This document shows positions 329-54,334 of a stretch of 64,000 nucleotides of DNA, piece after piece. Every line of letters begins with the position of its first letter. Position 1 is the stretch's first letter. Position numbers and translations under genes: made by a program. Origin of the DNA: Escherichia coli (GTDB lineage: Bacteria; Pseudomonadota; Gammaproteobacteria; Enterobacterales; Enterobacteriaceae); NCBI RefSeq assembly GCF_003018255.1, contig NZ_CP027440.1; one strand, written 5' to 3'. The notes under the pieces were generated by a model. That model did not search any database and was not told where the DNA came from. It saw only the letters and a program-made list of their open reading frames with translations.

Positions 329-1365
329 TTTTGTTCCTGTTCTTCGCGCTTGCGTTCTGCTGCCAGCGCCGCTTTACGTTTTTGTTCGGCTTCTTCCCAG
401 GCTTCATAGGCGTTAACGATACGCGCCACCACCGGGTGACGAACCACGTCTTCGCTGTGGAAGAAGTTAAAGCTGATCTCTTCGACATCAGCCAGTACTT
501 CGATGGCATGACGCAAACCAGACTTGGTATTACGCGGCAGGTCGATCTGTGTGACGTCGCCGGTGATAACCGCTTTTGAGTTAAAACCGATACGGGTCAG
601 GAACATCTTCATCTGTTCGATGGTGGTGTTCTGGCTCTCATCAAGAATGATAAACGCGTCGTTCAGCGTACGACCACGCATATAGGCCAGCGGTGCGACT
701 TCAATAACGTTGCGCTCAATCAGTTTCTCGACTTTCTCAAAGCCCAGCATTTCAAACAGCGCGTCGTACAGCGGGCGCAGATACGGGTCTACTTTCTGGC
801 TTAAATCGCCAGGCAGGAAGCCCAGTTTCTCACCGGCTTCTACTGCCGGACGAGTCAGCAGAATACGGCGAATTTCCTGACGCTCCAGGGCATCAACTGC
901 CGCAGCCACTGCCAGGTAGGTTTTACCCGTACCCGCCGGGCCAACGCCGAAGGTAATGTCATGGTCGAGAATATTGGCGATGTACTGCGCCTGGTTTGGC
1001 GTGCGCGGCTTAATTACGCCGCGTTTGGTTTTGATATTGACCGCTTTGCCGTACTCCGGCACGCTCTCCGCGCTTTGCTCCAGTACCCGCGCTTCTTTAA
1101 TCGCAAGGTGGATCTGTTCCGGTTCGATATCCTGAATCTGACCGCGCATCGGGGCAGTATCGACATACAGGCTACGCAGAATGTCTGCCGCAGCGGTGAC
1201 GCAAATCGGACGGCCGGTCAGTTTAAAGTGGTTATCGCGGCGATTGATTTCGATGCCGAGACGGCGTTCGAGTTGTTTGATGTTGTCATCAAACGGGCCG
1301 CACAGGCTCAACAGACGCGCATTGTCTGCTGGCTCCAGGGTGATTTCGCGAGTGTCTATGTTCAA
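325..1365 (-). CDS. ybeZ: PhoH-like ATPase YbeZ
   Basis: Track ORF 325..1404; Walker A motif GPAGTGKT. Start placed at TTG 1365 ([11 protein letters not shown]...) preceded by AGAGGA; the longer ORF start at 1404 is the alternative. Confidence 0.85.
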
Positions 1366-1517
1366 ACCGTTCCTCTTATCTGTATGCCGCCGGAAGCTGA
1401 ACATTCACCGGCCTATAAGGAAATTATTCACGCCACAGGAAAAAGGCGCAAGCATTGCGATAAAGATGGGGATAAAGAGAGAAAAAACAAGGCCCACCGG
1501 AACGGCGGGCCTGAGAA

Positions 1518-2942
1518 TTACGGCTGATAATAACCCACGCCAAGGTCGTTTTCTTTGCGGGTACGGGCAATCACCGATTCCGGTGTTTCTGCCACGCGCA
1601 GACCCATTTCATCTTCAGTTCGCACCACTTTACCGCGCAGAGAGTTCGGGTAGACGTCGGTAATTTCTACATCGACGAATTTACCGATCATATCCGGCGT
1701 ACCTTCGAAGTTGACGACGCGGTTATTTTCAGTACGGCCGGAAAGCTCCATGATGCTCTTACGCGATGTACCTTCTACCAGAATACGCTGGGTGGTACCG
1801 AGCATCCGGCGGCTCCATGCCATTGCTTGCTGATTGATACGTTCTTGTAGAATATACAGGCGCTGCTTCTTCTCTTCTTCCGGAACATCATCAACCATAT
1901 CGGCGGCTGGTGTACCTGGACGAGCGGAGAAGATAAAGCTGTAGCTCATGTCGAAATTGACGTCGGCAATCAGCTTCATCGTTTTCTCGAAGTCTTCGGT
2001 GGTTTCGCCAGGGAAGCCAACGATGAAGTCAGAACTGATCTGAATATCCGGACGCGCCGCACGCAGCTTACGGATGATCGCTTTGTACTCCAGCGCTGTA
2101 TGGGTACGTCCCATCAGGTTCAGAATGCGATCGGAACCGCTCTGTACCGGCAGATGCAGGAAGCTCACCAGCTCCGGCGTGTCGCGGTACACTTCGATGA
2201 TATCGTCGGTGAATTCGATCGGATGGCTGGTGGTAAAGCGAATACGATCGATCCCGTCGATCGCCGCAACCAGACGCAGCAGATCGGCAAACGATCCGGT
2301 GGTGCCGTCGTAGTTCTCACCGCGCCAGGCGTTCACGTTCTGGCCGAGCAGGTTAACTTCACGCACGCCCTGAGCAGCAAGCTGGGCAATCTCAAACAGA
2401 ATATCGTCGGACGGACGGCTTACCTCTTCACCACGGGTGTAAGGCACTACGCAGTAGGTGCAATATTTATTGCAGCCTTCCATGATGGAGACAAACGCGG
2501 TCGGCCCTTCGGCGCGCGGTTCCGGCAGACGGTCAAACTTCTCGATTTCCGGGAAGCTGATATCTACAACCGGGCTGCGGTCGCCGCGCACGGAGTTGAT
2601 CATCTCCGGCAGACGGTGCAGCGTTTGCGGCCCAAAAATAATATCGACATAGTGGGCGCGCTGGCGAATGTGCTCGCCTTCTTGCGATGCCACGCAGCCG
2701 CCGACGCCGATAATCAGGTCTGGATTCTTCTCTTTTAACAGTTTCCAGCGACCCAACTGATGGAAGACTTTTTCCTGAGCCTTCTCGCGGATTGAGCAGG
2801 TGTTCAGCAGCAGCACATCCGCTTCTTCCGCCACGTCGGTCAGTTGATAGCCGTGGGTGGCATCCAGCAGATCGGCCATCTTCGATGAATCGTACTCGTT
2901 CATCTGACAGCCCCAGGTTTTAATATGGAGTTTTTTGGTCAT
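1518..2942 (-). CDS. miaB: tRNA-i6A37 methylthiotransferase MiaB
   Basis: 474-aa ORF beginning [19 protein letters not shown], radical-SAM family, ATG confirmed at 2942. Confidence 0.95.
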
Positions 2943-3087: not shown

Positions 3088-4263
3088 ATGACAAATCAAC
3101 CAACGGAAATTGCCATTGTCGGCGGAGGAATGGTCGGCGGCGCACTGGCGCTGGGACTGGCTCAGCACGGATTTTCGGTAATGGTTATCGAACATGCCCA
3201 ACCTGCACCGTTTGTCGCTGACAGCCAGCCGGACGTGCGGATCTCGGCGATTAGTGCGGCTTCGGTATCATTGCTTAAAGGGTTAGGGGTCTGGGATGCA
3301 GTACAGGCTATGCGTTGCCATCCTTACCGCAGACTGGAAACGTGGGAGTGGGAAACGGCGCATGTGGTGTTTGACGCCGCTGAACTTAAGCTACCGTTGC
3401 TTGGCTACATGGTGGAAAACACTGTCCTGCAACAGGCGTTGTGGCAGGCGCTGGAAGCGCATCCGAAAGTAACGTTACGTGTGCCAACCTCGCTGATTGC
3501 ACTGCATCGCCATAATGATCTTCAGGAGCTGGAACTGAAGGGCGGTGAAACGATCCTCGCGAAGCTGGTGATTGGTGCCGACGGCGCAAATTCGCAGGTG
3601 CGACAGATGGCGGGAATTGGCGTTCATGCCTGGCAGTATGCGCAGTCGTGTATGTTGATTAGCGTACAGTGTGAGAACGATCCCGGCGACAGCACCTGGC
3701 AGCAATTTACCCCGGACGGACCGCGTGCGTTTCTGCCGTTGTTTGATAACTGGGCATCGCTGGTGTGGTATGACTCTCCGGCGCGCATTCGCCAGTTGCA
3801 GAATATGAATATGGCGCAGCTACAGGCGGAAATCGCGAAGCATTTCCCGTCGCGTCTGGGTTACGTGACACCGCTTGCCGCTGGTGCGTTTCCGCTGATA
3901 CGTCGCCATGCGTTGCAGTATGTGCAACCAGGGCTTGCTCTGGTGGGCGATGCCGCGCATACCATCCATCCGCTGGCGGGGCAGGGGGTGAATCTTGGTT
4001 ATCGTGATGTCGATGCCCTGATTGACGTTCTGGTGAACGCCCGCAGCTACGGCGAAGCGTGGGCCAGTTATCCTGTGCTCAAGCGTTACCAGATGCGGCG
4101 TATGGCGGATAACTTTATGATGCAAAGTGGTATGGATCTGTTTTATGCCGGATTCAGCAATAATCTGCCACCGCTGCGTTTTGTGCGTAATCTTGGTTTG
4201 ATGGCGGCGGAGCGTGCTGGCGTGTTGAAACGTAAGGCGCTGAAATATGCGTTAGGGTTGTAG
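3088..4263 (+). CDS. ubiF: FAD-dependent ubiquinone biosynthesis hydroxylase UbiF
   Basis: ORF with MTNQPTEIAIVGGGMVGG dinucleotide-binding N-terminus; ATG at 3088 (the track begins 2 codons earlier at TTG). Confidence 0.92.
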   Translation: MTNQPTEIAIVGGGMVGGALALGLAQHGFSVMVIEHAQPAPFVADSQPDVRISAISAASVSLLKGLGVWDAVQAMRCHPYRRLETWEWETAHVVFDAAELKLPLLGYMVENTVLQQALWQALEAHPKVTLRVPTSLIALHRHNDLQELELKGGETILAKLVIGADGANSQVRQMAGIGVHAWQYAQSCMLISVQCENDPGDSTWQQFTPDGPRAFLPLFDNWASLVWYDSPARIRQLQNMNMAQLQAEIAKHFPSRLGYVTPLAAGAFPLIRRHALQYVQPGLALVGDAAHTIHPLAGQGVNLGYRDVDALIDVLVNARSYGEAWASYPVLKRYQMRRMADNFMMQSGMDLFYAGFSNNLPPLRFVRNLGLMAAERAGVLKRKALKYALGL

Positions 4264-4293
4264 CCTCACAACATTGCTGGATGCATGCCAACC

Positions 4294-4365
4294 GTAGGTC
4301 GGATAAGACGCGGCAGCGTCGCATCCGACTTTGAAGGATAAGACGAGTCAACATCGCATTCGGCA
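4294..4365. repeat. REP-like palindromic unit(s) downstream of ubiF
   Basis: gtaggtcggataagacgcggcagcgtcgcatccgac resembles the REP consensus, followed by a partial second unit. Confidence 0.5.
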
Positions 4366-4385
4366 TTGAATATACGCAGAAAAGC

Positions 4386-4412
4386 AAAAAGCTCGCCGAG
4401 GCGAGCTTTTTT
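4386..4412. terminator. Bidirectional rho-independent terminator (ubiF on +, tRNA operon on -)
   Basis: A-run, GCTCGCC-ga-GGCGAGC hairpin, then T-run; it reads as a terminator on both strands. Confidence 0.65.
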
Positions 4413-4416
4413 AATG

Positions 4417-4491
4417 TGGCTGGGGTACGAGGATTCGAACCTCGGAATGCCGGAATCAGAATCCGGTGCCTTACCGCTTGGCGATACCCCA
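4417..4491 (-). tRNA. glnX: tRNA-Gln (anticodon CUG)
   Basis: 75-nt reverse complement matches the E. coli tRNA-Gln sequence ending CCA; anticodon loop UUCUGAU; ends verified against overlapping ORF codons. Confidence 0.95.
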
Positions 4492-4528
4492 ACTGGGTGC
4501 ACTTACAAGGTAAGCGTCTTGAATAAAT

Positions 4529-4603
4529 TGGCTGGGGTACGAGGATTCGAACCTCGGAATGCCGGAATCAGAATCCGGTGCCTTACCGCTTGGCGATACC
4601 CCA
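4529..4603 (-). tRNA. glnV: tRNA-Gln (anticodon CUG)
   Basis: Identical 75-nt copy of the CUG isoacceptor. Confidence 0.95.
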
Positions 4604-4651
4604 ACAAATTGGTTTTTGAATTTGCCGAACATATTCGACACATTCAGAATT

Positions 4652-4728
4652 TGGTGGCTACGACGGGATTCGAACCTGTGACCCCATCATTATGAGTGAT
4701 GTGCTCTAACCAACTGAGCTACGTAGCC
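4652..4728 (-). tRNA. metU: Elongator tRNA-Met (CAU)
   Basis: 77-nt reverse complement GGCTACGTAGCTCAGTTGGTTAGAGCACATCACTCATAATGATGGGGTCACAGGTTCGAATCCCGTCGTAGCCACCA. Confidence 0.95.
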
Positions 4729-4743
4729 AGATTGTTTCTTCGA

Positions 4744-4818
4744 TGGCTGGGGTACCTGGATTCGAACCAGGGAATGCCGGTATCAAAAACCGGTGCCTTA
4801 CCGCTTGGCGATACCCCA
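4744..4818 (-). tRNA. glnW: tRNA-Gln (anticodon UUG)
   Basis: 75-nt tRNA-Gln with anticodon loop UUUUGAU. Confidence 0.95.
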
Positions 4819-4852
4819 ATAACCGGGCGGTGAACCGCTTATTCGAAGAATA

Positions 4853-4927
4853 TGGCTGGGGTACCTGGATTCGAACCAGGGAATGCCGGTATCAAAAACC
4901 GGTGCCTTACCGCTTGGCGATACCCCA
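4853..4927 (-). tRNA. glnU: tRNA-Gln (anticodon UUG)
   Basis: Second copy of the UUG isoacceptor. Confidence 0.95.
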
Positions 4928-4950
4928 TCCGTACAACGCTTTCTGGTGAA

Positions 4951-5035
4951 TGGTGCGGGAGGCGAGACTTGAACTCGCACACCTTGCGGCGCCAGAACCT
5001 AAATCTGGTGCGTCTACCAATTTCGCCACTCCCGC
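4951..5035 (-). tRNA. leuW: tRNA-Leu (anticodon UAG), long variable arm
   Basis: 85-nt reverse complement GCGGGAGTGGCGAAATTGGTAGACGCACCAGATTTAGGTTCTGG...CACCA. Confidence 0.93.
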
Positions 5036-5043
5036 AAAAAAGA

Positions 5044-5120
5044 TGGTGGCTACGACGGGATTCGAACCTGTGACCCCATCATTATGAGTGATGTGCTCTA
5101 ACCAACTGAGCTACGTAGCC
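5044..5120 (-). tRNA. metT: Elongator tRNA-Met (CAU)
   Basis: 77-nt copy of the metU sequence; first gene of the operon. Confidence 0.95.
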
Positions 5121-5160
5121 ATCTTTTTTTTCGCGATACCTTATCGGCGTTGCGGGGCGC

Positions 5161-5189
5161 ATTATGCGTATAGAGCCTTGCAGCGTCAA
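5161..5189 (-). promoter_or_regulatory. Candidate sigma70 promoter of the metT-leuW-glnUW-metU-glnVX tRNA operon
   Basis: Minus strand reads TTGACG-N17-CATAAT followed by a GC-rich discriminator (GCGCCCCGC), about 35 nt upstream of the mature metT 5' end. Confidence 0.45.
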
Positions 5190-5464
5190 CCTCTTTTTCA
5201 AGGAAAATTGCTCGAAAGTGACTGTTTGGTTAGGTTGCGAACAGCATGGCGCTATATTCGTCAATTATTGTTTACTTTGTGTTTTTTCCCCACCCTACAG
5301 CCATTCTTTTGTCATACAGGATGAAATTCGGAATTCAACAATAGTGGTGGGAAATTAATCTATGAAATACTGGCCTACAGTAATGAGTTGTCAAACAGCG
5401 ATGTGGCAAACCCGGAACATTTCCTTACTGCATATCAGAATCAACAAGCGCCCCAGTAACTGAA

Positions 5465-5490
5465 ATTGCCCCGGATTTCTCCGGGGCAAT
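5465..5490 (-). terminator. Putative terminator hairpin downstream of asnB
   Basis: ATTGCCCCGGA-tttc-TCCGGGGCAAT stem-loop just after the asnB stop; the trailing U-tract is weak. Confidence 0.35.
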
Positions 5491-5500
5491 ATTACACGTC

Positions 5501-7165
5501 TTATTTATATGCCGACTGGTGAACGCCAACCGCGCGACCAGACGGATCGTCCATTTTCTTGAACGCTTCATCCCACTCAATCGCTTTAGCGGAAGAACAA
5601 GCGACGGAAGGACCGCCCGGCACGCACTCAGCGGCGCTCGGAAGCGGGAACAATTCTTCAAAGATCTCCCGGTACAGATACGCTTCTTTTGAGGTCGGCG
5701 TGTTGTACGGGAAGCGGAAGCGGGCAGTTTCCAGCTGTTGATCAGACACCTGCTGCGCTGCCACTTCTTTCAGGGTGTCGATCCAACTGTAACCGACGCC
5801 ATCGGAGAACTGCTCTTTTTGCCGCCAGGCCACGCTTGCAGGCAGATACGCTTCAAAACATTCACGCAGGATGTGTTTTTCCATTTTGCCGTTACCGCAC
5901 ATTTTATCCTGTGGGTTAATGCGCATCGCCACATCAAGGAATTTTTTGTCGAGGAACGGAACGCGTGCTTCCACGCCCCAGGCTGACATCGCTTTGTTGG
6001 CACGCGCGCAGTCATACATATGCAGGGCCAGCAGTTTACGCACCGTCTCTTCATGCAACTCTTTAGCGTTCGGCGCTTTGTGGAAGTATAGATAACCGCC
6101 AAACACTTCGTCAGAACCTTCACCGGACAGCACCATTTTAATGCCCATCGCCTTGATCTTACGCGACATTAAATACATCGGTGTTGAAGCGCGAATAGTG
6201 GTCACATCATAAGTTTCGATGTGGTAAATCACGTCGCGGATGGCATCCAGACCTTCCTGTACAGTGAAGTGAATTTCGTGATGCACCGTGCCCAGATGGT
6301 TTGCCACTTCCTGGGCTGCTTTCAGATCCGGTGAGCCCGGCAGACCTACAGCAAAGGAGTGCAACTGCGGCCACCAGGCTTCAGAGCGTTCCTGATCTTC
6401 CACGCGACGGGCGGCGTATTTCTTGGTGATAGCGGAAATAATTGAGGAATCCAGACCACCAGAAAGCAGCACACCGTAAGGCACATCAGACATCAGATGG
6501 CTTTTAACGGAATCTTCCAGTGCCTGACGCAGCTCGTTTTTGTCGGTCACGTTATCTTTCACCGCATCGTAGTCGAACCAGTCGCGATGATAATAAGAAC
6601 GGATTTCGCCGTCCTGACTCCACAAATAGCTCCCCGCCGGAAACTCTTTAATCGTGCGGCAAACTGGCACGAGGGCTTTCATTTCTGAGGCCACATACAG
6701 CTGACCGTGTTCGTCATAGCCCATATACAGTGGGATGATCCCCAGATGGTCGCGACCAATCAGATATGCATCTTTTTCGCTGTCGTACAGGGCAAAGGCA
6801 AACATGCCCTGCAAGTCGTCGAGAAATTCCGGCCCTTTTTCCTGATACAGCGCGAGGATCACTTCACAGTCAGACCCGGTCTGGAACTGGTAACGATCGC
6901 CATATTCAGCGCGCAATGCCTGGTGGTTGTAGATTTCACCGTTTACTGCCAGCACATGAGTTTTTTGTTGGTTGTAGAGAGGTTGCGCCCCCGCGTTAAC
7001 GTCAACAATTGACAGACGTTCGTGGGCGAGGATGGCGTTATCGCTGGCATAAATACCGGACCAGTCCGGGCCACGATGACGCATCAGGCGTGACAGCTCG
7101 AGTGCTTTCTTACGCAGCTCAACTGCGTCTGTTTTGATATCGAATACGCCAAAAATTGAACACAT
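5501..7165 (-). CDS. asnB: Asparagine synthetase B (glutamine-hydrolysing)
   Basis: 554-aa ORF, MCSIFGVFDIKTDAVELRKKALELSRLMRHRGPDWSGIY N-terminus (Ntn amidotransferase Cys2). Confidence 0.95.
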   Translation of the reverse strand: MCSIFGVFDIKTDAVELRKKALELSRLMRHRGPDWSGIYASDNAILAHERLSIVDVNAGAQPLYNQQKTHVLAVNGEIYNHQALRAEYGDRYQFQTGSDCEVILALYQEKGPEFLDDLQGMFAFALYDSEKDAYLIGRDHLGIIPLYMGYDEHGQLYVASEMKALVPVCRTIKEFPAGSYLWSQDGEIRSYYHRDWFDYDAVKDNVTDKNELRQALEDSVKSHLMSDVPYGVLLSGGLDSSIISAITKKYAARRVEDQERSEAWWPQLHSFAVGLPGSPDLKAAQEVANHLGTVHHEIHFTVQEGLDAIRDVIYHIETYDVTTIRASTPMYLMSRKIKAMGIKMVLSGEGSDEVFGGYLYFHKAPNAKELHEETVRKLLALHMYDCARANKAMSAWGVEARVPFLDKKFLDVAMRINPQDKMCGNGKMEKHILRECFEAYLPASVAWRQKEQFSDGVGYSWIDTLKEVAAQQVSDQQLETARFRFPYNTPTSKEAYLYREIFEELFPLPSAAECVPGGPSVACSSAKAIEWDEAFKKMDDPSGRAVGVHQSAYK

Positions 7166-11790: not shown

Positions 11791-13737
11791 ATGAATATTT
11801 TAGGTTTTTTCCAGCGACTAGGTAGGGCGTTACAGCTCCCTATCGCGGTGCTGCCGGTGGCGGCGCTGTTGCTGCGATTCGGTCAGCCAGATTTACTTAA
11901 CGTTGCGTTTATTGCCCAGGCGGGCGGTGCGATTTTTGATAACCTCGCATTAATCTTCGCCATCGGCGTGGCATCCAGCTGGTCGAAAGACAGCGCAGGT
12001 GCGGCGGCACTGGCGGGTGCGGTAGGTTACTTTGTGTTAACCAAAGCGATGGTGACCATCAACCCAGAAATTAACATGGGTGTACTGGCGGGTATCATTA
12101 CCGGTCTGGTCGGTGGTGCAGCCTATAACCGTTGGTCCGATATTAAACTGCCGGACTTCCTGAGCTTCTTCGGCGGCAAACGCTTTGTGCCGATTGCCAC
12201 CGGCTTCTTCTGCCTGGTGCTGGCGGCCATTTTTGGTTACGTCTGGCCGCCGGTACAGCACGCTATCCATGCAGGCGGCGAGTGGATCGTTTCTGCGGGC
12301 GCGCTGGGTTCCGGTATCTTTGGTTTCATCAACCGTCTGCTGATCCCAACCGGTCTGCATCAGGTACTGAACACCATCGCCTGGTTCCAGATTGGTGAAT
12401 TCACCAACGCGGCGGGTACGGTTTTCCACGGCGACATTAACCGCTTCTATGCCGGTGACGGCACCGCGGGGATGTTCATGTCCGGCTTCTTCCCGATCAT
12501 GATGTTCGGTCTGCCGGGTGCGGCGCTGGCGATGTACTTTGCAGCACCGAAAGAGCGTCGTCCGATGGTTGGCGGTATGCTGCTTTCTGTTGCTGTTACT
12601 GCGTTCCTGACCGGTGTGACTGAGCCGCTGGAATTCCTGTTCATGTTCCTTGCGCCGCTGCTGTACCTCCTGCACGCACTGCTGACCGGTATCAGCCTGT
12701 TTGTGGCAACGCTGCTGGGTATCCACGCGGGCTTCTCCTTCTCTGCGGGGGCTATCGACTACGCGTTGATGTATAACCTGCCGGCCGCCAGCCAGAACGT
12801 CTGGATGCTGCTGGTGATGGGTGTTGTCTTCTTCGCTATCTACTTCGTGGTGTTCAGTTTGGTTATCCGCATGTTCAACCTGAAAACGCCGGGCCGTGAA
12901 GATAAAGAAGACGAGATCGTTACTGAAGAAGCCAACAGCAACACGGAAGAAGGTCTCAATCAACTGGCAACCAACTATATTGCTGCGGTTGGCGGTACTG
13001 ACAACCTGAAAGCCATTGACGCCTGTATTACTCGTCTGCGCCTTACCGTGGTTGACTCAGCTCGCGTCAACGATGTGATGTGTAAACGTCTGGGGGCTTC
13101 TGGGGTAGTAAAACTGAACAAACAGACTATTCAGGTGATTGTGGGCGCGAAAGCAGAATCCATCGGCGATGCGATGAAGAAAGTCGTTGCCCGTGGTCCG
13201 GTAGCCGCTGCGTCAGCTGAAACTGCGCCTGCAACTGCCGCGCCTGTAGCAAAACCGCAGGCTGTACCAAACGCGGTGTCTATCGCGGAGCTGGTATCGC
13301 CGATTACCGGTGATGTTGTGGCACTGGATCAGGTTCCTGACGAAGCATTCGCCAGCAAAGCGGTGGGTGACGGTGTGGCGGTGAAACCGACAGATAAAAT
13401 CGTCGTATCACCAGCCGCAGGGACAATCGTGAAAATCTTCAACACCAACCACGCGTTCTGTCTGGAAACCGAAAAAGGCGCGGAGATCGTCGTCCATATG
13501 GGTATCGACACCGTAGCGCTGGAAGGTAAAGGCTTTAAACGTCTGGTGGAAGAGGGCGCGCAGGTAAGCGCAGGACAACCGATTCTGGAAATGGATCTGG
13601 ATTACCTGAACGCTAACGCCCGCTCGATGATTAGCCCGGTGGTTTGCAGCAATATCGACGATTTCAGCGGCCTGATCATTAAAGCTCAGGGCCATGTTGT
13701 GGCGGGTCAAACACCGCTGTATGAAATCAAAAAGTAA
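11791..13737 (+). CDS. nagE: PTS N-acetylglucosamine-specific EIICBA component
   Basis: 648-aa ORF, hydrophobic N-terminal EIIC region, then EIIB and EIIA (glucose-family) domains. Confidence 0.95.
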   Translation: MNILGFFQRLGRALQLPIAVLPVAALLLRFGQPDLLNVAFIAQAGGAIFDNLALIFAIGVASSWSKDSAGAAALAGAVGYFVLTKAMVTINPEINMGVLAGIITGLVGGAAYNRWSDIKLPDFLSFFGGKRFVPIATGFFCLVLAAIFGYVWPPVQHAIHAGGEWIVSAGALGSGIFGFINRLLIPTGLHQVLNTIAWFQIGEFTNAAGTVFHGDINRFYAGDGTAGMFMSGFFPIMMFGLPGAALAMYFAAPKERRPMVGGMLLSVAVTAFLTGVTEPLEFLFMFLAPLLYLLHALLTGISLFVATLLGIHAGFSFSAGAIDYALMYNLPAASQNVWMLLVMGVVFFAIYFVVFSLVIRMFNLKTPGREDKEDEIVTEEANSNTEEGLNQLATNYIAAVGGTDNLKAIDACITRLRLTVVDSARVNDVMCKRLGASGVVKLNKQTIQVIVGAKAESIGDAMKKVVARGPVAAASAETAPATAAPVAKPQAVPNAVSIAELVSPITGDVVALDQVPDEAFASKAVGDGVAVKPTDKIVVSPAAGTIVKIFNTNHAFCLETEKGAEIVVHMGIDTVALEGKGFKRLVEEGAQVSAGQPILEMDLDYLNANARSMISPVVCSNIDDFSGLIIKAQGHVVAGQTPLYEIKK

Positions 13738-13939: not shown

Positions 13940-15604
13940 ATGAGTGAGGCAGAAGCCCGCCCGACTAACTTTATTCGTCAGATCATCGATGAAGATCTGG
14001 CCAGTGGTAAGCACACCACAGTACACACCCGTTTCCCGCCGGAGCCGAATGGCTATCTGCATATTGGCCATGCGAAATCTATCTGCCTGAACTTCGGGAT
14101 CGCCCAGGACTATAAAGGCCAGTGCAACCTGCGTTTCGACGACACTAACCCGGTAAAAGAAGATATCGAGTATGTTGAGTCGATCAAAAACGACGTTGAG
14201 TGGTTAGGTTTTCACTGGTCTGGTAACGTCCGTTACTCCTCCGATTATTTTGATCAGCTCCACGCCTATGCGATCGAACTGATCAATAAAGGCCTGGCGT
14301 ACGTTGATGAACTGACACCGGAACAGATCCGCGAATACCGCGGCACCCTGACGCAGCCGGGTAAAAACAGCCCGTACCGCGACCGCAGCGTTGAAGAGAA
14401 CCTGGCGCTGTTCGAAAAAATGCGTACCGGTAGTTTTGAAGAAGGTAAAGCCTGCCTGCGTGCGAAAATCGACATGGCGTCGCCATTTATCGTAATGCGC
14501 GATCCGGTGCTGTACCGCATTAAATTTGCTGAACACCACCAGACTGGCAACAAGTGGTGCATCTACCCGATGTACGACTTCACCCACTGCATCAGCGATG
14601 CGCTGGAAGGTATTACGCACTCTCTGTGTACGCTTGAGTTCCAGGACAACCGCCGTCTGTACGACTGGGTACTGGACAACATCACCATTCCTGTTCACCC
14701 GCGCCAGTACGAATTCTCGCGCCTGAATCTGGAATACACTGTGATGTCCAAGCGTAAGCTGAACCTGCTGGTGACCGATAAGCACGTTGAAGGCTGGGAT
14801 GACCCGCGTATGCCGACCATTTCTGGTCTGCGTCGTCGTGGTTACACTGCGGCTTCTATTCGTGAGTTCTGCAAACGCATTGGTGTGACCAAGCAGGACA
14901 ACACCATTGAGATGGCGTCACTGGAATCCTGCATCCGTGAAGATCTCAACGAAAATGCCCCGCGCGCAATGGCGGTTATCGATCCGGTGAAACTGGTTAT
15001 CGAAAACTACCAGGGCGAAGGCGAAATGGTCACCATGCCGAACCATCCGAACAAACCGGAAATGGGTAGCCGTCAGGTGCCGTTTAGCTGTGAGATTTGG
15101 ATCGATCGCGCCGATTTCCGCGAAGAAGCTAACAAGCAGTACAAACGTCTGGTGTTGGGTAAAGAAGTGCGTCTGCGTAATGCTTACGTGATTAAGGCAG
15201 AACGCGTCGAGAAAGATGCCGAAGGTAATATCACCACCATCTTCTGTACTTATGACGCCGACACCTTAAGCAAAGATCCGGCAGATGGTCGTAAAGTGAA
15301 AGGTGTTATTCACTGGGTGAGCGCGGCACATGCGCTGCCGGTTGAAATCCGTTTGTATGACCGTCTGTTCAGCGTGCCTAACCCAGGTGCTGCGGATGAT
15401 TTCCTGTCGGTGATTAACCCGGAATCGCTGGTGATCAAACAGGGTTTCGCTGAACCGTCGCTGAAAGACGCGGTAGCGGGTAAAGCATTCCAGTTTGAGC
15501 GTGAAGGTTATTTCTGCCTCGACAGCCGCCATTCCACTGCCGAAAAACCGGTATTTAACCGCACCGTAGGGCTGCGTGATACCTGGGCGAAAGTAGGCGA
15601 GTAG
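13940..15604 (+). CDS. glnS: Glutaminyl-tRNA synthetase
   Basis: 554-aa [50 protein letters not shown] (HIGH motif). Confidence 0.96.
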
Positions 15605-35613: not shown

Positions 35614-38600
35614 ATGAGCGGAAAACCGGCGGCGCGTCAGGGCGACATGACGCAGTATGGCGGTAGCATTGTTCAGGATTCAGCCGGGGTACGTATTGGT
35701 GCCCCCACCGGCGTGGCCTGTTCGGTGTGCCCCGGCGGGGTGACGTCCGGCCATCCGGTCAATCCGCTGCTCGGTGCGAAGGTCCTTCCCGGCGAAACCG
35801 ACCTTGCCCTGCCCGGCCCGCTGCCGTTCATCCTCTCCCGCACCTACAGCAGTTACCGGACAAAAACGCCCGCGCCGGTGGGGAGCCTCGGCCCCGGCTG
35901 GAAAATGCCTGCGGATATCCGCTTACAGCTGCGCGATAACACACTGATACTCAGTGATAACGGCGGCAGAAGCCTGTATTTTGAGCACCTGTTTCCCGGT
36001 GAGGACGGTTACAGCCGCAGCGAGTCACTCTGGCTGGTGCGCGGCGGCGTGGCGAAACTGGATGAAGGTCACCGGCTGGCCGCACTCTGGCAGGCGCTGC
36101 CGGAAGAGCTTCGCCTGAGTCCGCATCGTTATCTGGCGAAGAACAGTCCGCAGGGGCCGTGGTGGGTATTCGGCTGGTGTGAGCGGGTGCCGGAGGCGGA
36201 TGAGGTGCTGCCTGCGCCGCTGCCGCCGTACCGGATACTGACCGGGCTGGTGGACCGCTTCGGGCGCACACAGACGTTTCACCGTGAGGCTGGCGGCGAA
36301 TTCAGCGGCGAAATCACCGGCGTGACCGACGGCGCAGGCCGTCACTTCCGGCTGGTACTGACCACGCAGGCGCTGCGGGCAGAAGAGGCCCGGCAGAAGG
36401 CCACTTCCGGCGGGACGGAACCGTCCGCTTTTCCTGATACCCAGCCGGACTACACGGAATATGGCCGGGACAACGGTATCCGTCTGTCTGCCGTGTGGCT
36501 GACGCACGACCCGGAATACCCGGAGAATTTACCTGCCGCGCCGCTGGTACGCTATGGCTGGACGCCGCGCGGCGAACTGGCGGCGGTGTATGACCGCAGC
36601 AATACACAGGTGCGCAGCTTTACTTACGATGATAAATACCGGGGCCGGATGGTGGCGCACCGTCACACGGGCCGGCCGGAAATCCGTTACCGTTACGACA
36701 GTGACGGGCGGGTGACAGAACAGCTAAACCCGGCAGGCTTAAGCTACACGTATCAGTATGAGAAAGACCACATCACCATCACCGACAGCCTGGACCGCCG
36801 TGAAGTGCTGCACACGCAGGGCGAAGGCGGGCTGAAGCGGGTGGTGAAAAAGGAACACGCGGACGGCAGCGTCACGCAGAGTCAGTTTGACGCGGTGGGC
36901 AGGCTTAAGGCACAGACGGATGCCGCAGGCCGGACGACTGAGTACAGCCCGGATGTGGTGACCGGACTCATCACGCGCATCACCACGCCGGATGGCAGGG
37001 CATCGGCGTTTTACTATAACCACCACAGCCAGTTAACGTCAGCCACCGGGACTGACGGGCTGGAGTTGCGCAGGGAATATGATGAATCCGGCCGTCTGAT
37101 TCAGGAAACTGCCCCTGACGGCGATATCACCCGCTACCGTTATGATAATCTACACAGTGAATTACCCTGCGCAACGGAAGATGCCACCGGCAGCCGGAAA
37201 ACCATGACATGGAGCCGTTACGGTCAGTTGCTGACCGTCACTGACTGTTCCGGTTATGTAACCCGTTATGACCATGACCGTTTTGGTCAGATGACGGCGG
37301 CGCACCGCGAGGAAGGGCTGAGTCAGTATCGCGCATACGACAGCCGTGGACAGTTAATTGCGGTGAAAGACATGCAGGGCCATGAAACGCGGTATGAATA
37401 CAACGCCGCCGGTGACCTGACCGCCGTCATTGCCCCGGACGGCAGCAGAAACGGGACACAGTACGATACGTGGGGAAAGGCCATCCGTACCACGCAGGGT
37501 GGTCTGACGCGCAGTATGGAATACGATGCTGCCGGACGGGTCATCCGCCTGACCAGTGAAAACGGCAGCCACACCACCTTCCGTTACGATGTACTCGACC
37601 GGCTGATACAGGAAACCGGCTTTGACGGCCGCACACAGCGTTATCATCACGACCTGACCGGTAAACTTATCCGCAGCGAGGATGAGGGGCTGGTCACCCA
37701 CTGGCACTATGACGAAGCAGACCGCATCACGCACCGCACCGTGAAGGGTGAAACCGCAGAACAGTGGCGGTACGACGAACGCGGCTGGCTGACACAAATC
37801 AGCCATCTCAGCGAAGGCCACCGGGTGACGGTGCATTACGGGTATGATGAGAAAGGCCGCCTGACCGGTGAGCGCCAGACGGTACATCACCCGCAGACGG
37901 AAGCACTGCTCTGGCAGCATGAGACCAGACATGCGTACAACGCGCAGGGGCTGGCGAACCGCTGTATACCGGACAGCCTGCCCGCCGTGGAATGGCTGAC
38001 TTACGGCAGCGGCTGGCTGGCAGGCATGAAACTCGGCGACACACCGCTGGTGGATTTCACCCGTGACCGCCTGCACCGGGAAACGCTGCGCAGCTTCGGC
38101 CGTTATGAACTCACCACCGCTTATACCTCTGCCGGGCAGTTACAGAGCCAGCACCTGAACAGCCTGCAGTATGACCGCGATTACACCTGGAACGACAACG
38201 GCGAACTCATCCGCATCAGCAGCCCGCGACAGACCCGGAGTTACAGCTACAGCGACTCCGGCAGGCTGACCGGCGTCCACACCACCACCTCAAATCTGGA
38301 TATCCGCATCCCGTATGCCACGGACCCGGCAGGTAACCGCCTGCCCGACCCGGAGCTGCACCCGGACAGCACCCTCAGCATGTGGCCGGATAACCGTATC
38401 GCCCGTGACGCGCACTATCTTTACCAGTATGACCGTCACGGCAGGCTGACAGAGAAAACCGACCTCATCCCGGAAGGGGTTATCCGCACGGATGATGAGC
38501 GGACTCACCGGTACCATTACGACAGCCGGCACCGGCTGGTGCACTACACGCGGACACAATATGCAGAGCCGCTGGTCGAAAGTCGCTATCTTTACGACCC

Positions 38601-39300
38601 GCTGGGGCGCAGGGTGGCAAAACGGGTATGGCGGCGTGAACGGGACCTGACGGGCTGGATGTCGCTGTCACGGAAACCGGAAGTGACCTGGTACGGCTGG
38701 GACGGCGACCGGCTGACCACAATACAGAACGACAGAACCCGCATCCAGACGGTTTATCAGCCGGGGAGCTTCACGCCACTCATCAGGGTCGAAACTGCCA
38801 CCGGTGAGCTGGCGAAAACGCAGCGCCGCAGCCTGGCGGATGCGCTTCAGCAGTCCGGCGGTGAAGACGGTGGCAGTGTGGTGTTCCCGCCGGTGCTGGT
38901 GCAGATGCTCGACCGGCTGGAAAGTGAAATCCTGGCTGACCGGGTGAGTGAGGAAAGCCGCCGCTGGCTGGCATCGTGCGGCCTGACGGTGGAGCAGATA
39001 CAAAACCAGATGGACCCGGTGTACACGCCGGCGCGAAAAATCCACCTGTACCACTGCGACCATCGCGGCCTGCCGCTGGCGCTTGTCAGCACGGAAGGGG
39101 CAACAGAATGGTGCGCAGAATACGATGAATGGGGCAACCTGCTGAATGAAGAGAACCCGCACCAGCTGCAGCAGCTCATCCGCCTGCCGGGTCAGCAGTA
39201 TGATGAGGAGTCCGGCCTGTATTACAACCGCCACCGCTATTATGACCCGCTGCAGGGGCCAGGGAAAGATCACGTAACGCTGCTTTTTTGTACTAAATAA
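35614..39300 (+). CDS. rhsC: Rhs-family protein (RhsC-like core), C-terminally truncated: no DPxGL cleavage motif and no toxin domain
   Basis: 1228-aa GC-rich ORF with a PAAR-like N-terminal motif (KPAARQGD) and many YD repeats; it ends ...[11 protein letters not shown] plus 13 unrelated residues ([13 protein letters not shown]) and a stop. Confidence 0.85.
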
Positions 39301-40312
39301 TTCGCATTTTATGTTTAAAAATTGAGATATTCCTCATTACCTAAAGCTGTTTTTCATTGCTTATACATGATCAAATACTCCTTACATAATTAAGGAGAAC
39401 AAAATGGAACTTAAAAAATTGATGGAGCATATTTCTATTATCCCAGATTACAGACAAGCCTGGAAAGTGGAACATAAATTGTCTGATATTCTACTGTTGA
39501 CTATTTGTGACGTTATTTCTGGTGCAGAAGGTTGGGAAGATATAGAGGATTTTGGGGAAACACATCTCGATTTTTTAAAACAATATGGTGATTTTGAAAA
39601 TGGTATTCCTGTTCACGATACCATTGCCAGAGTTGTATCCTGTATCAGTCCTGCAAAATTTCACGAGTGCTTTATTAACTGGATGCGTGACTGCCATTCT
39701 TCAGATGATAAAGACGTCATTGCAATTGATGGAAAAACGCTCCGGCACTCTTATGACAAGAGTCGCCGCAAGGGAGCGATTCATGTCATTAGTGCGTTCT
39801 CAACAATGCACAGTCTGGTCATCGGACAGATCAAGACGGATGAGAAATCCAATGAGATCACAGCTATCCCGGAACTTCTTAACATGCTGAATATTAAAGG
39901 AAAAATAATCACAACTGATGCGATGGGTTGCCAGAAAGATATTGCAGAGAAGATACAAAAACAGGGCGGTGATTATTTATTCGCTGTAAAAGGAAACCAG
40001 GGGCGGCTAAATAAAGCCTTCGAGGAAAAATTTCCGCTGAAAGAATTAAATAATCCAGAGCATGGCAGTTACGCAATGAGTGAAAAGAGTCACGGCAGAG
40101 AAGAAATCCGTCTTCATATTGTTTGCGATGTCCCTGATGAACTTATTGATTTCACGTTTGAATGGAAAGGGCAGCCATGGACAGAAAATATCTGGCGTCA
40201 GTCCTTGCGGGGAGCGTGCTTTCGTAATTTTGCCCTGCTACAACAGGATTAACTTCACAAACATCATTTGCCAACGTCTACACTTACTCCTGTTAATATC
40301 TCAGGAGCAGTA
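39301..40312 (+). mobile_element. H-repeat (ISAs1-family) element remnant with an internal deletion
   Basis: AT-rich left end, then an ISAs1-like transposase ORF; the expected C-terminus ([18 protein letters not shown]) is present but in the +1 frame near 40171..40230, implying an internal deletion of roughly 0.3 kb. Confidence 0.65.
39404..40252 (+). pseudogene. ybfD: H-repeat-associated (ISAs1-family) transposase, frameshifted by an internal deletion (YbfD-like)
   Basis: 282-aa [35 protein letters not shown]...; about 250 aa are transposase-like, then an out-of-frame tail [26 protein letters not shown]. Confidence 0.7.
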
Positions 40313-49126: not shown

Positions 49127-50188
49127 TTAGTTATAGTTAATCTTAAAAAGCACCACTGTATCGAAGGGACCCGCTTCGATGGGGGTGCCGGGAATGGACG
49201 AAAGTTCAGCCGTATAGGTTTTTTCGTAGATCAGCATATCGCTGGTGAAATCAGCATATTCGCTGTATTTGTTGAAAGTATAGGGTGAAGAATTTTCATC
49301 CAGCAAACGTAGCTTCAGTCCATTACCAATCAGCAGTGCTTTATCCTCTTCAATCAATGTTTCTTCGGTATAAAACGAAGAGCTGACCTTAAATCCGTCG
49401 GTGCACTGGTCATTTTGTGATTTTGTCGTCTTAATACTGAATGTTTTCGACATTGTGTGGCGGCGAATATCCAGCAGGTTAAATTTACCAAAATCAATCA
49501 CCTGTGTTTCTGGTGAAATAGAAAAATTGACGCTGCAATCCAGTACACGAATGTTTTCCAGACCAGTAATATGGTATTTCAGGTTTTGGGCGGTAGGGTC
49601 TTCGTTAACGCTACCGGCACCATCAAATTGCACGACGATGTAGTCGCTAAGCGAACTTTGATAATCATGCGGCGGTATTTCGCGAATCTTAACGTATAAC
49701 CGCATACGAGCAAGAAAGGTTCGCGACATGTGAATATTAGCGGGGTCACCCGAGCATATTTTGTTCTGCCAGCCCATCGCGATAATCTGCTCAGGGGTAT
49801 AAATGTTAATGTTCTTACTGTCGATACACTGGTTGGTGTCGATGCGGCTTTTCCCCAGACTGGCATCGTAATCGACACCATTGTATGTCACGCCGAGTTG
49901 ATAATAACGATCCTGTACCCCCGGGTAGGGGTTTACCCATGCGTAGACATGTTCGCTTTCAAAGTTGCCGTTGGTATTGTTGTCACAATAGACGGGAATT
50001 TTAATATCGTCAGATTCCCAGATCTTATCGCCGGGTTTGGCATTACCTGGCACAGCAAAGGGTTGAATCGCTTCCGATTTTTCTACCGTTCCGCCGGAAG
50101 TACCAAAATAGCAGTTCAGCGCTAGCGCAGACTTCAATGGCAGAAATACCAGACAGATGACGAGCAACACTCCCTTGCCAGCACTCAT
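49127..50188 (-). CDS. ybgO: Putative fimbrial adhesin-like protein (tip subunit of the ybgD operon)
   Basis: Track ORF 49127..50218 trimmed to the ATG at 50188: [23 protein letters not shown]... (signal peptide), 353 aa; last gene of the chaperone-usher operon. Confidence 0.8.
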
Positions 50189-50916
50189 TTCTTCGCCTCC
50201 ACTGCTTGTAAACGGCATTGTCCGCTGCAGTTGAGCGTCGTCATGCGTAACGCGCCGTAATCATCCATATAACCGAGATAAAACTGACTGCCGCTATAAC
50301 TTCCGGTGTTTGTAATTACTGTACTAAAAGGCGCAACCATCACGGTTTTGAAGCCGGGAAGAACGCCTTTTTCATTTCTCCCCAGATAGGCAATGGTCAG
50401 ATAATACGCGGTAGGATTTTTCAGTGTCAGTTGGTTGCCCTGCTGGCTGACCTGTAACTGCAGTTCGACCTTTTCTCCTGCTTTCTTGCGTAATGCAGCC
50501 GGTCGCCAGAATACCTTGATACGACTCTGAATGGCGACTTGCAGAACGGCATGGCCGCTGTTTTTTTCTGGGGAGGGAGGAATTTCACGCATATTGTAGA
50601 AAAATAGCGTTTCGCGATCGCCCGGTAATTTTGTGGTCGAGGCTTGCTTTACTATCCGTACCTGCGTTGTTGCTTTCGGTTCCAGACGTTGTATCGGTGG
50701 CAGGGCAACCAGAAGATCATCGCTTTTCTCCCCTTTTTCATTTTCGAGCCAGGAATAAGCGAGGTAGGGGAGTTTATCGCTACGATTATCCACGCGCAGA
50801 CTGGTAGCTTTATCATTAGCGTTAAACACAATACGAGTGCGATCGGGTTGTAGTGCAGCGTGGCTGCACAGACTGGCAACCAACAACAAAAGGGGTAGTC
50901 CTTTCATAAATGTCAT
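50185..50916 (-). CDS. ybgP: Periplasmic fimbrial chaperone (PapD-like)
   Basis: Track ORF 50185..50940 (TTG start); ATG at 50916 has the best-spaced AAGGA: [20 protein letters not shown].... The exact start is uncertain (50922 and 50907 are alternatives). Confidence 0.8.
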
Positions 50917-50930
50917 TTTCATTTCCTTAA

Positions 50931-53390: not shown

Positions 53391-53440
53391 ACCTGATAAA
53401 TATTTGAAGAAAGGCAGCGATAGCGCCGCCAAAGTGATAC

Positions 53441-54007
53441 TTATTTATAATCCAGCACGTAGGTTGCATTCGCCGTAACTGCACCTGGCGTTACAGGTGT
53501 TGCCTGATCAATTTGTTCCATCCAGGCAAAGAAATTCAGCGTTTGCTCGCTGGAGGTCGGAGCCAGGTCGATATCTGGAGTCGCGGTGCCTAAAACGATA
53601 TTGCTTTGATCTTTATTCATTAAACGCACGCCGACACCGGTGGCTTCACCCGTGCTGGTGTTGTTGAGAATCGGATCTGCGCCGGTGGTTTTCGCTGAGC
53701 TGTCAAAGGTGACTGCAACTTTAGAAATCTTGCCGCCGGAACCGTTGTTGGAGTTTTCCAAATCGCAGTTGACTAAGCGCAGGTCGACAGCAACGGCATC
53801 GCTGTGATGTGACTGATTAATGTGGCTGGTGGTCACCTGACCGAGTTCAACCTCTTTATCAATATCATCCTGATGTATTTCACACGGTGCTTCAATAACT
53901 TCACCTTTAAAGTGAATTTCACCGGATCCTTCATCAGCCGCATAAACAGGTGCTGTGAATAGCAGAGATATGGCCAGTGCGGCCAATGTTTTTTGTCCTT
54001 TAAACAT
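53441..54007 (-). CDS. ybgD: Fimbrial major subunit (FimA-like pilin)
   Basis: Track ORF 53441..54094 trimmed to the ATG at 54007: MFKGQKTLAALAISLLFTAPVYA (signal peptide), 188 aa, C-terminal ...ATYVLDYK donor-strand-type tail. Confidence 0.85.
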   Translation of the reverse strand: MFKGQKTLAALAISLLFTAPVYAADEGSGEIHFKGEVIEAPCEIHQDDIDKEVELGQVTTSHINQSHHSDAVAVDLRLVNCDLENSNNGSGGKISKVAVTFDSSAKTTGADPILNNTSTGEATGVGVRLMNKDQSNIVLGTATPDIDLAPTSSEQTLNFFAWMEQIDQATPVTPGAVTANATYVLDYK

Positions 54008-54334
54008 AGCTGAGTCCTTTAAATAATGAGATAGAGTGTTGCGAGGCAAGAATATATTAACTGACAGTTGAATGTATTTGGTTTTATTTAACAATATTAA
54101 AAAGCTTGTTATATAAAGAATGGAATAATTGAGTGCATAAATTTATTGTTTAATGAGATGAAAGATGGGGTGGGATGGATATGCATAATTTTCATTGGGT
54201 TAACAATGCTACCGGCAGGAAAGTAAAAAAATAAACTTATCATTCTGCTCAGTATGTGGCTTGTCACATTTTTTCACCTTATTAATGGGTATTTGCATCT
54301 GGTTTAATTTTTACAATTTATTATGTTCAGCCAT

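Follow-up and report, generated by a model that had tools for sequence, protein, structure and literature searches.

A seven-gene tRNA array of Escherichia coli is the metT (supB-E) operon, and its gene number varies among strains and genera

The seven tRNA genes carried by the 64,000-nucleotide stretch of Escherichia coli DNA analysed here (the window) are the known metT (supB-E) tRNA operon, showing strain-level polymorphism only. The first-pass annotation of the window, made from the letters alone, had made a real observation and read it correctly; the content was already known, and nothing departs from prior knowledge. Its annotation is confirmed, a phylogenetic footprint backs the promoter that it proposed, and the size of the array changes in nature. 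Only mildly new are a population-scale survey of copy number and the evidence that some 'complete' genomes are misassembled at this locus. Taken whole, the account that best explains the data, and in which we place very high confidence, is that of a known operon with a single promoter, a processed transcript, regulation deduced from its sequence, and a copy number driven by recombination.

The classic suppressors supE and supB map to the operon, which has been known since 1981; the original description is reportedly that of Nakajima, Ozeki and Shimura in Cell in that year (23:239).

Gene content and chromosomal setting

Gene calls. Over the whole window ARAGORN calls seven tRNA genes and no others; all lie on the minus strand, from 4417 to 5120, and their anticodons in transcription order are cat, tag, ttg, ttg, cat, ctg and ctg. 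The same seven are scored independently at 57.6-71.1 bits by Rfam model RF00005, whose gathering score is 29. Both programs return exactly the coordinates and order read at first pass, namely seven minus-strand tRNAs in 704 bp in the order Met, Leu(UAG), two Gln(UUG), Met, two Gln(CUG). The identity that had been claimed within the Met, UUG and CUG pairs also holds: string comparison, like the repeat families, shows no differences between metT and metU (77 nt), glnU and glnW (75 nt), or glnV and glnX (75 nt). Gln(UUG) and Gln(CUG) genes differ from each other at 7 of 75 positions, and where the changes fall in the anticodon or T stem they are paired. Spacers between the genes measure, in transcription order, 8, 23, 34, 15, 48 and 37 nt, and the CCA ends are encoded within the genes. 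Protein-coding potential was considered and rejected, the open reading frames that overlap the array being only short, mechanical ones of at most 112 aa. Coordinates of the genes and of the elements around them are collected in Table 1.

Table 1. Features of the metT operon in the window
Feature	Coordinates	Strand	Evidence
A/T-rich tract, T-run 5207-5204 and A-run 5198-5194; candidate UP element	5190..5213	-	sequence; A5+ conservation
-35 hexamer TTGACG	5184..5189	-	promoter scan; TTGACG in 102/105 matched regions
-10 hexamer CATAAT, 17 nt from -35	5161..5166	-	promoter scan; invariant in 22-genus alignment
GC-rich discriminator GCGCCCC	5154..5160	-	sequence; conserved in 105/110 upstream regions
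Predicted 5' leader, ~33 nt, start G5153 +/-1, predicted to be removed by RNase P	5121..5153	-	position of the -10 hexamer
metT, elongator tRNA-Met(CAU)	5044..5120	-	ARAGORN; Rfam 71.1 bits; tRNA-Met in RefSeq
leuW, tRNA-Leu(UAG), 85 nt	4951..5035	-	ARAGORN; Rfam; RefSeq
glnU, tRNA-Gln(UUG)	4853..4927	-	ARAGORN; Rfam; string comparison
glnW, tRNA-Gln(UUG), identical to glnU	4744..4818	-	ARAGORN; Rfam; string comparison
metU, elongator tRNA-Met(CAU), identical to metT	4652..4728	-	ARAGORN; Rfam; string comparison; PMC6265465
glnV, tRNA-Gln(CUG)	4529..4603	-	ARAGORN; Rfam; string comparison
glnX, tRNA-Gln(CUG), identical to glnV; supE44 position	4417..4491	-	ARAGORN; Rfam; string comparison
Rho-independent terminator, 11-bp stem, 4-nt loop, T-run	4376..4411	-	terminator scan; RNA fold

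Type of the Met genes. Elongator tRNA-Met was told apart from tRNA-fMet and tRNA-Ile2(CAU) by a Watson-Crick 1:72 pair, by an anticodon stem without a three-G-C run, and by identity with metT/metU. The two Met genes of the array are of elongator type, with GGCTACG...CGTAGCC ends that give a G1-C72 pair and with the anticodon stem CATCA/TGATG. Elongator tRNA-Met is encoded identically by metT and metU (PMC6265465), and these are the two genes found here.

Locus. Gene order, the single strand and the position between ubiF and asnB are all those of the metT operon, for which we use the name and gene order of earlier work (PMC2241853, PMC6265465, PMC11480407). A 1.2-kb query spanning the locus is 100% identical to E. 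coli strain 317, where RefSeq gives the order ubiF, two tRNA-Gln, Met, two Gln, Leu, Met, asnB, with miaB, ybeZ, ybeY, corC and lnt further out at one end and, at the opposite end, nagD, nagC, nagA and nagB. Over its length the window is collinear with strain 317 at 1-4% divergence, with three indels of 4.7-9 kb. Of 5,426 complete E. coli genomes, 5,424 have the locus, and in 5,262 of these a single match covers 80% or more of the query; 59 of 60 sampled matches overlie ubiF, and asnB stands beside the array in every locus fetched. Strains differ in the flanks: laboratory-strain records whose ubiF and asnB protein alleles are of K-12 type are 98.3% identical to the 1.2-kb query, and some strains have an insertion with a 146-aa open reading frame between the promoter and asnB, which the window strain lacks.

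Essentiality. The transcription unit was found experimentally to be essential in MG1655(DE3), and no gene for the CAU (elongator Met), UAG, UUG or CUG anticodon lies outside it (PMC11480407). The operon is essential because it supplies all elongator tRNA-Met, tRNA-Leu(UAG) and both tRNA-Gln species. In our survey leuW is a single-copy gene in 5,413 of the 5,426 genomes. The suppressor supE44 has been reassigned to glnX (PMC4444293, PMC11148124), and one laboratory strain examined has a CTA anticodon at the glnX position.

Promoter, transcript and processing

Promoter. The hexamers TTGACG-17-CATAAT are near consensus, matching it at 10 of 12 positions, and form the sole sigma-70-like site, on the minus strand, that a consensus scan returned in 2 kb. 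That scan is not above chance, with one site against an average of 2.0 in shuffled sequences, so the promoter call rests on position and conservation. For the latter, one genome per species was scanned for the metT-leuW junction. This gave 120 loci across Enterobacterales, from genera that include Yersinia, Serratia, Pantoea, Erwinia, Photorhabdus, Xenorhabdus, Edwardsiella, Hafnia, Dickeya, Pectobacterium, Budvicia and Arsenophonus, and 110 upstream regions. Of those 110 regions, 105 contain TTGACN-17-CATAAT-GCGCCCC. In all 105 the spacer is 17 nt and the pattern ends 29-33 nt upstream of metT; all 105 likewise have a run of at least five A no more than 12 nt ahead of the -35 hexamer, preceded in turn by a T-run. 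An alignment of 22 genera shows GTTGACG and CGCATAATGCGCCCCGCAACGCCG to be invariant or nearly so, with free variation in both the 17-nt spacer and the distal part of the leader. This footprint strongly supports a predicted promoter at the very position proposed at first pass, together with its GC-rich discriminator, all seven of whose positions are G or C. The A/T-rich tract upstream resembles UP-element subsites, and binding of the alpha subunit is a candidate role for it.

Leader. The leader opens with a stretch of ~20 nt, GCAACGCCGAT(A/G)AAGGT, that hardly changes over the same 22 genera. Inspection of the alignment by eye for a conserved leader hairpin turned up no consistent pairing. The in vitro precursor of Kime et al. 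was designed to begin at CGCAACGCCGATAAGGTA / CGCAACGCC (PMC3985628), and in an RNase P mutant a pre-metT with an unprocessed 5' end measures ~125 nt (Mohanty and Kushner, PMC2241853). The predicted start at G5153 fits both, the distance from it to the leuW cleavage site being ~118 nt.

Terminator and transcript. The terminator begins five nucleotides after glnX and folds at -19.1 kcal/mol (z = -4.6), a stability reached by 0 of 200 shuffled sequences. Scanning placed promoter and terminator elements at the ends of the array and none within it. Northern blots have shown a full-length transcript made up of the 5' leader, the seven tRNAs and the terminator; the primary transcript still carries the terminator, which is taken off chiefly by RNase E, and RNase P, which separates the tRNAs, is inhibited where the terminator has not been removed (PMC2241853). 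In vitro, RNase E cuts the precursor by direct entry (PMC3985628). The single seven-gene operon read at first pass is thus supported by the match to the ubiF-asnB locus and by the published full-length transcript.

On this evidence, one sigma-70 promoter with its upstream A/T-rich tract would produce a polycistronic precursor of ~770 nt, running from about 5153 to the terminator. As published work shows, RNase E strips the terminator first, RNase P then cuts at each tRNA 5' end to release seven units, and the short 3' spacers are trimmed by exonucleases.

Regulation. G/C-rich discriminators correlate with stringent control and with the supercoiling sensitivity of stable-RNA promoters (PMC8422995). 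Output of the metT promoter most likely tracks growth rate and ppGpp/DksA through its GC-rich discriminator. We found no measurement of the metT promoter's transcription start, of its response to ppGpp/DksA or of its growth-rate dependence in the searchable literature, and the label 'stringent-type' therefore rests on sequence features.

Two other readings of the locus were weighed. Transcription could be divided, with metU-glnV-glnX under a promoter of its own and the locus made up of two units; the array does resemble an ancient duplication of a Met-...-Gln-Gln module, and its spacers, the 48-nt one between metU and glnV among them, are A/T-rich. The scan of positions 3900-5900, however, holds no second sigma-70-like site, only 15 nt of spacer precede metU, and the transcript seen on northern blots spans all seven tRNAs, while a metU-glnV-glnX species without sequence 5' of metU has been explained by RNase P cleavage (PMC2241853). 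A second, internal promoter was rejected on the scan and the full-length transcript, and we regard the two-unit reading as very improbable. Still less probable, to the point of deserving almost no credence, is that the array was acquired horizontally as a tRNA island of phage or mobile-element origin and is not a core operon. Clusters with duplicated isoacceptors are often carried by phages and islands, and REP elements and strain-variable DNA flank the locus; yet the array keeps its place between ubiF and asnB in nearly every E. coli genome, only 4 of ~25,000 matching places fall in plasmid-labelled records, its Met-Leu(UAG)-Gln core is found with the same promoter throughout Enterobacterales, and the cluster is the sole gene source for four essential tRNA species. 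Neither integrase genes or att sites at the array borders nor a patchy phylogenetic distribution were seen. An island origin was rejected on the conserved placement and the order-wide core.

Array size among genomes

Survey of E. coli. Synthetic queries were built for the junctions expected from unequal recombination and run over the 5,426 complete genomes. The single-Gln(CUG) junction occurs in 152 of them (2.8%), E2348/69 included, in agreement with the 159 from which the glnV-glnX spacer is missing. For Gln(UUG) the corresponding deletion-junction query had to be dropped: its metU flank also matches metT, and joined wild-type pieces reached at least 80% coverage in 5,413 genomes. Single-UUG arrays were counted instead by absence of the glnU-glnW spacer; the raw figure of 91 includes Met-Met collapses and genomes without the locus, and removing these leaves ~80 genomes with one Gln(UUG). 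Three or more tandem copies of Gln(CUG) were called in 29 genomes at threshold (~27 convincing); the array of K-12 GM4792 numbers ten genes, five of them CUG. For Gln(UUG), 35 records show at least three copies in tandem, of which 8 are of the same length and apparently represent one genome and 6 are laboratory strains with neighbouring accession numbers. The record of Origami2(DE3) shows a twelve-gene array, consistent with a Met-Met duplication plus a Gln gain.

Nine single-CUG genomes are spread over seven flanking haplotypes, one of which matches the seven-gene window in all but 1 nt over 2 kb. Unrelated isolates have both haplotype and single-CUG allele in common: SBF22, from Swiss surface water, with EC332, from Vietnamese chicken meat, and BCE049 with JCM 20135. 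Given these multiple haplotypes and this sharing among unrelated isolates, loss of one CUG gene is both recurrent and heritable.

Mechanism. The identical pairs lie 109, 112 and 392 bp apart and serve as substrates for unequal homologous recombination; whole gene-plus-spacer units are gained or lost, so that copy number drifts among strains and genera. That the repeats could change copy number had been put forward at first pass, with a comparison of strains as the way to check it. Array size does vary among the complete E. coli genomes, and the idea is borne out by the recombination junctions in them, by the genus-level differences between arrays described below, and by a sequenced metT x metU recombinant.

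Misassembled genomes. Some variants in the databases cannot be real, since leuW is missing from them although the unit is essential: 13 'complete' E. coli genomes have no leuW at all, and eight among these contain a Met-Met collapse junction. Collapsed assemblies include E. coli 536 (Met-Gln-Gln) and HS13-1 and K-12 MC1061 (both Met-Gln), and in CEA224S the promoter and leader are fused straight to the terminator with all seven genes gone. Such variants without leuW are best explained as repeats collapsed in assembly, though genomes of the Sanger era may instead have lost the genes through recombination in the cloning host. With assembly errors among the variants, the copy-number percentages above are upper bounds for real variation. 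Wrong 'complete' assemblies at the metT locus matter for any tRNA gene counts taken from assemblies.

Pressed further, the same argument would make every public copy-number difference a collapse or expansion in assembly and leave the true E. coli array fixed at seven genes. The genomes without essential, single-copy leuW, the stripped-down arrays just listed, and the triple-UUG arrays in the neighbouring records of BL21(DE3), TOP10, Stbl4, XL1-Blue, XL10-Gold and Origami2 can all be cited for it. Against it stand the single-CUG allele that recurs with identical flanks in the two pairs of isolates named above and an architecture fixed by genus: every Yersinia and Photorhabdus array has a single CUG gene, and every Erwinia array a single UUG gene. 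Strains with supE44, moreover, survive on one functional CUG gene, and recombination between metT and metU has been sequenced (PMC5400242). We consider a fixed array distinctly unlikely, and prefer recombination as the source of the variation that remains once the collapsed assemblies are set aside.

Other species. Architectures of the 88 complete arrays from other species are given in Table 2. Arrays of related genera span four genes (MLuc) to eight (MLuuMccc, MLuuuuMc), and architecture is largely uniform by genus: Yersinia and Photorhabdus are all MLuuMc, Erwinia is all MLuMcc, and both Budvicia are MLuuMLu.

Table 2. Array architectures in species other than E. coli (M, Met; L, Leu; u, Gln-UUG; c, Gln-CUG)
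Architecture	Species
MLuuMcc (window form)	35
MLuuMc	26
MLuMcc	8
MLuc	4
MLucMc	3
MLuuMccc	2
MLuuMLu	2
MLuu	2
Single-case architectures, including MLuuuuMc	6

Comparison with known systems

The promoter of tyrT in E. coli K-12 is the classic stringent, supercoiling-sensitive tRNA promoter; its regulation has been measured, whereas that of metT is deduced. Homology between promoters of stable RNAs was already remarked on in the early 1980s. The metT and tyrT promoters have in common, at nearly the same register, ATGCGCCCCGC, which covers the end of the -10 hexamer and the discriminator, and, in their early leaders, CCGATAAGG, so that across the -10 region, discriminator and early leader they have identical runs of 11 and 9 nt. 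The discriminator GCGCCCC is the same in both. They differ in the -35 hexamer and spacer (TTTACA and 16 nt in tyrT, TTGACG and 17 nt in metT), and the remaining leader and the downstream genes of tyrT are unrelated to those of metT.

The block that begins with the -10 hexamer and reaches about +20, CGCATAATGCGCCCCGCAACGCCGAT(A/G)AAGGT, is nearly invariant in the 22 genera. Because it is conserved so widely and has ATGCGCCCCGC and CCGATAAGG in common with the otherwise unrelated tyrT leader, it may have more than a plain promoter role. It may be an initially transcribed or leader element shared by tRNA operons, and the recurrent gain and loss of Gln genes in natural E. coli may be a selected tuning of tRNA-Gln dosage and not neutral drift; that both hold together we think unlikely. 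If the first were true, the block might set open-complex lifetime or promoter escape, or be a factor-binding site.

With the metT operon of E. coli as described, the window shares genes, order, strand, ubiF-asnB site, promoter, leader and terminator, and differs in spacers and flanks. The metT operon of Salmonella enterica has the same seven-gene order, and on the Salmonella plasmid pUST313 a spontaneous, sequenced recombination between metT and metU deleted leuW-glnU-glnW (PMC5400242). This recombinant is direct experimental support for the mechanism suggested at first pass. The plasmid was multicopy and the selection acted against an excess of tRNA-Gln(UUG) (PMC5400242); the chromosomal equivalent would remove essential genes.

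That the copy number of tRNA arrays can shift by duplication and deletion is general background (PMC7661048, PMC10954465). In E. coli, argQZYV-serV and lysT-valT-lysW-valZ-lysYZQ are likewise polycistronic with repeated identical tRNA genes. The metT array differs from them in that three repeat families are interleaved in it and four tRNA species have all of their genes there, and for that reason only some of its recombination products are viable.

Missing, extra and altered genes in the metT array

One departure from the seven-gene array was found in strain CEA224S (NZ_CP166080.1, a 'complete' RefSeq genome), where at positions 1700-1740 of its ubiF-asnB locus (L004) the leader end ...GCGAAAAAAAAGA abuts CATTAAAAAAGCTCGC... 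directly, so that all seven tRNA genes, the equivalent of window 4417-5121, are gone with base precision. Since the metT unit is essential, this absence is probably an artefact of assembly or polishing; a search of the CEA224S record yielded no second place matching the metT locus. In eight 'complete' genomes the array has collapsed between metT and metU, leaving only Met-Gln-Gln or Met-Gln (examples in the table), and leuW is absent altogether from 13 genomes, these eight included. The collapsed genomes have the same architecture as the spontaneous plasmid recombinant pUST314 (PMC5400242). These genomes are likely misassembled at the locus, which bears on tRNA gene counts derived from assemblies.

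Arrays with additional genes were also found, the longest of those tabulated having 12 tRNAs. Triple-UUG arrays occur in records for BL21(DE3), TOP10, Stbl4, XL1-Blue and XL10-Gold, whose neighbouring accession numbers suggest either a pipeline artefact or genuine amplification in laboratory stocks.

A different kind of variant is present in the laboratory strain EC2648-R2, in which the final gene of the array (L005 717-791, corresponding to window 4417-4491) has the anticodon CTA. ARAGORN calls this gene 'tRNA-Pyl' and RefSeq leaves it without annotation; it is the supE44 amber suppressor, located in glnX rather than glnV, a position already published by Singaravelan et al. 2010, as relayed in PMC4444293 and PMC11148124.

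Features at the metT locus and elsewhere in the window
Feature	Source	Coordinates	Strand	Description
Expanded array	L009 (locus of K-12 GM4792)	826-1865		10 tRNAs, including five tandem Gln(CUG)
Expanded array	L010 (locus of Origami2-DE3)	516-1612		12 tRNAs, Met-Leu-Gln x3-Met-Leu-Gln-Met-Gln-Gln
metT/metU collapse	L006 (E. coli 536), L007 (HS13-1), L008 (K-12 MC1061)			Junction, window 4652-4728 fused to 5121
Additional promoter-asnB segment	L002; L135 (loci of other E. coli)	2149-2586; 3485-3922		Annotated 145-aa hypothetical protein, WP_000943484.1 or WP_000943489.1
glnS (glutaminyl-tRNA synthetase)	Window	13940-15604	+	554-aa ORF; assigned by collinearity with strain 317
Rhs protein, then DDE_Tnp_1 transposase	Window	35614-40252	+	1,228 aa; RHS repeats, DUF6531, RHS core
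Chaperone-usher fimbrial operon	Window	49127-54094	-	Fimbrial subunit, usher (833 aa), PapD-like chaperone, fimbrial-like protein

Flanks of the operon and the wider window

Two tandem 35-nt units (GGATAAGACGCGGCAGCGTCGCATCCGAC...) of 80% identity are located in the stretch that separates the ubiF stop codon from the tRNA terminator (window 4301-4370). They resemble REP/BIME palindromic elements; Rfam gave no match in this interval. On the other side, the intergenic DNA that separates asnB from the tRNA promoter (window ~5375-5500) varies among strains, and for many of them the match to the window ends at ~5375 and is followed by the additional segment with the annotated hypothetical protein, which the window lacks.

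The window places glnS ~9 kb from its four tRNA-Gln genes and directly adjoining nagE (11791-13737), whereas in strain 317, which shares an identical metT locus, a 9-kb island (D-threonate genes, a sialidase-family protein and an SLC13 permease) separates the two. Strain 317 also lacks the 4.8-kb Rhs/DDE_Tnp_1 segment at the corresponding site, and beside gltA it has just a fimbrial pseudogene in place of the chaperone-usher operon.

The metT leader and its likeness to tyrT

An alignment across 22 genera showed near-invariance of the metT leader to ~+20, beyond the extent of known promoter elements. The promoter/leader regions of metT (window 5121-5172) and MG1655 tyrT (L142 1124-1180, the tyrT promoter region) have ATGCGCCCCGC in common and, a few bases past it, CCGATAAGG, both in almost equal register.
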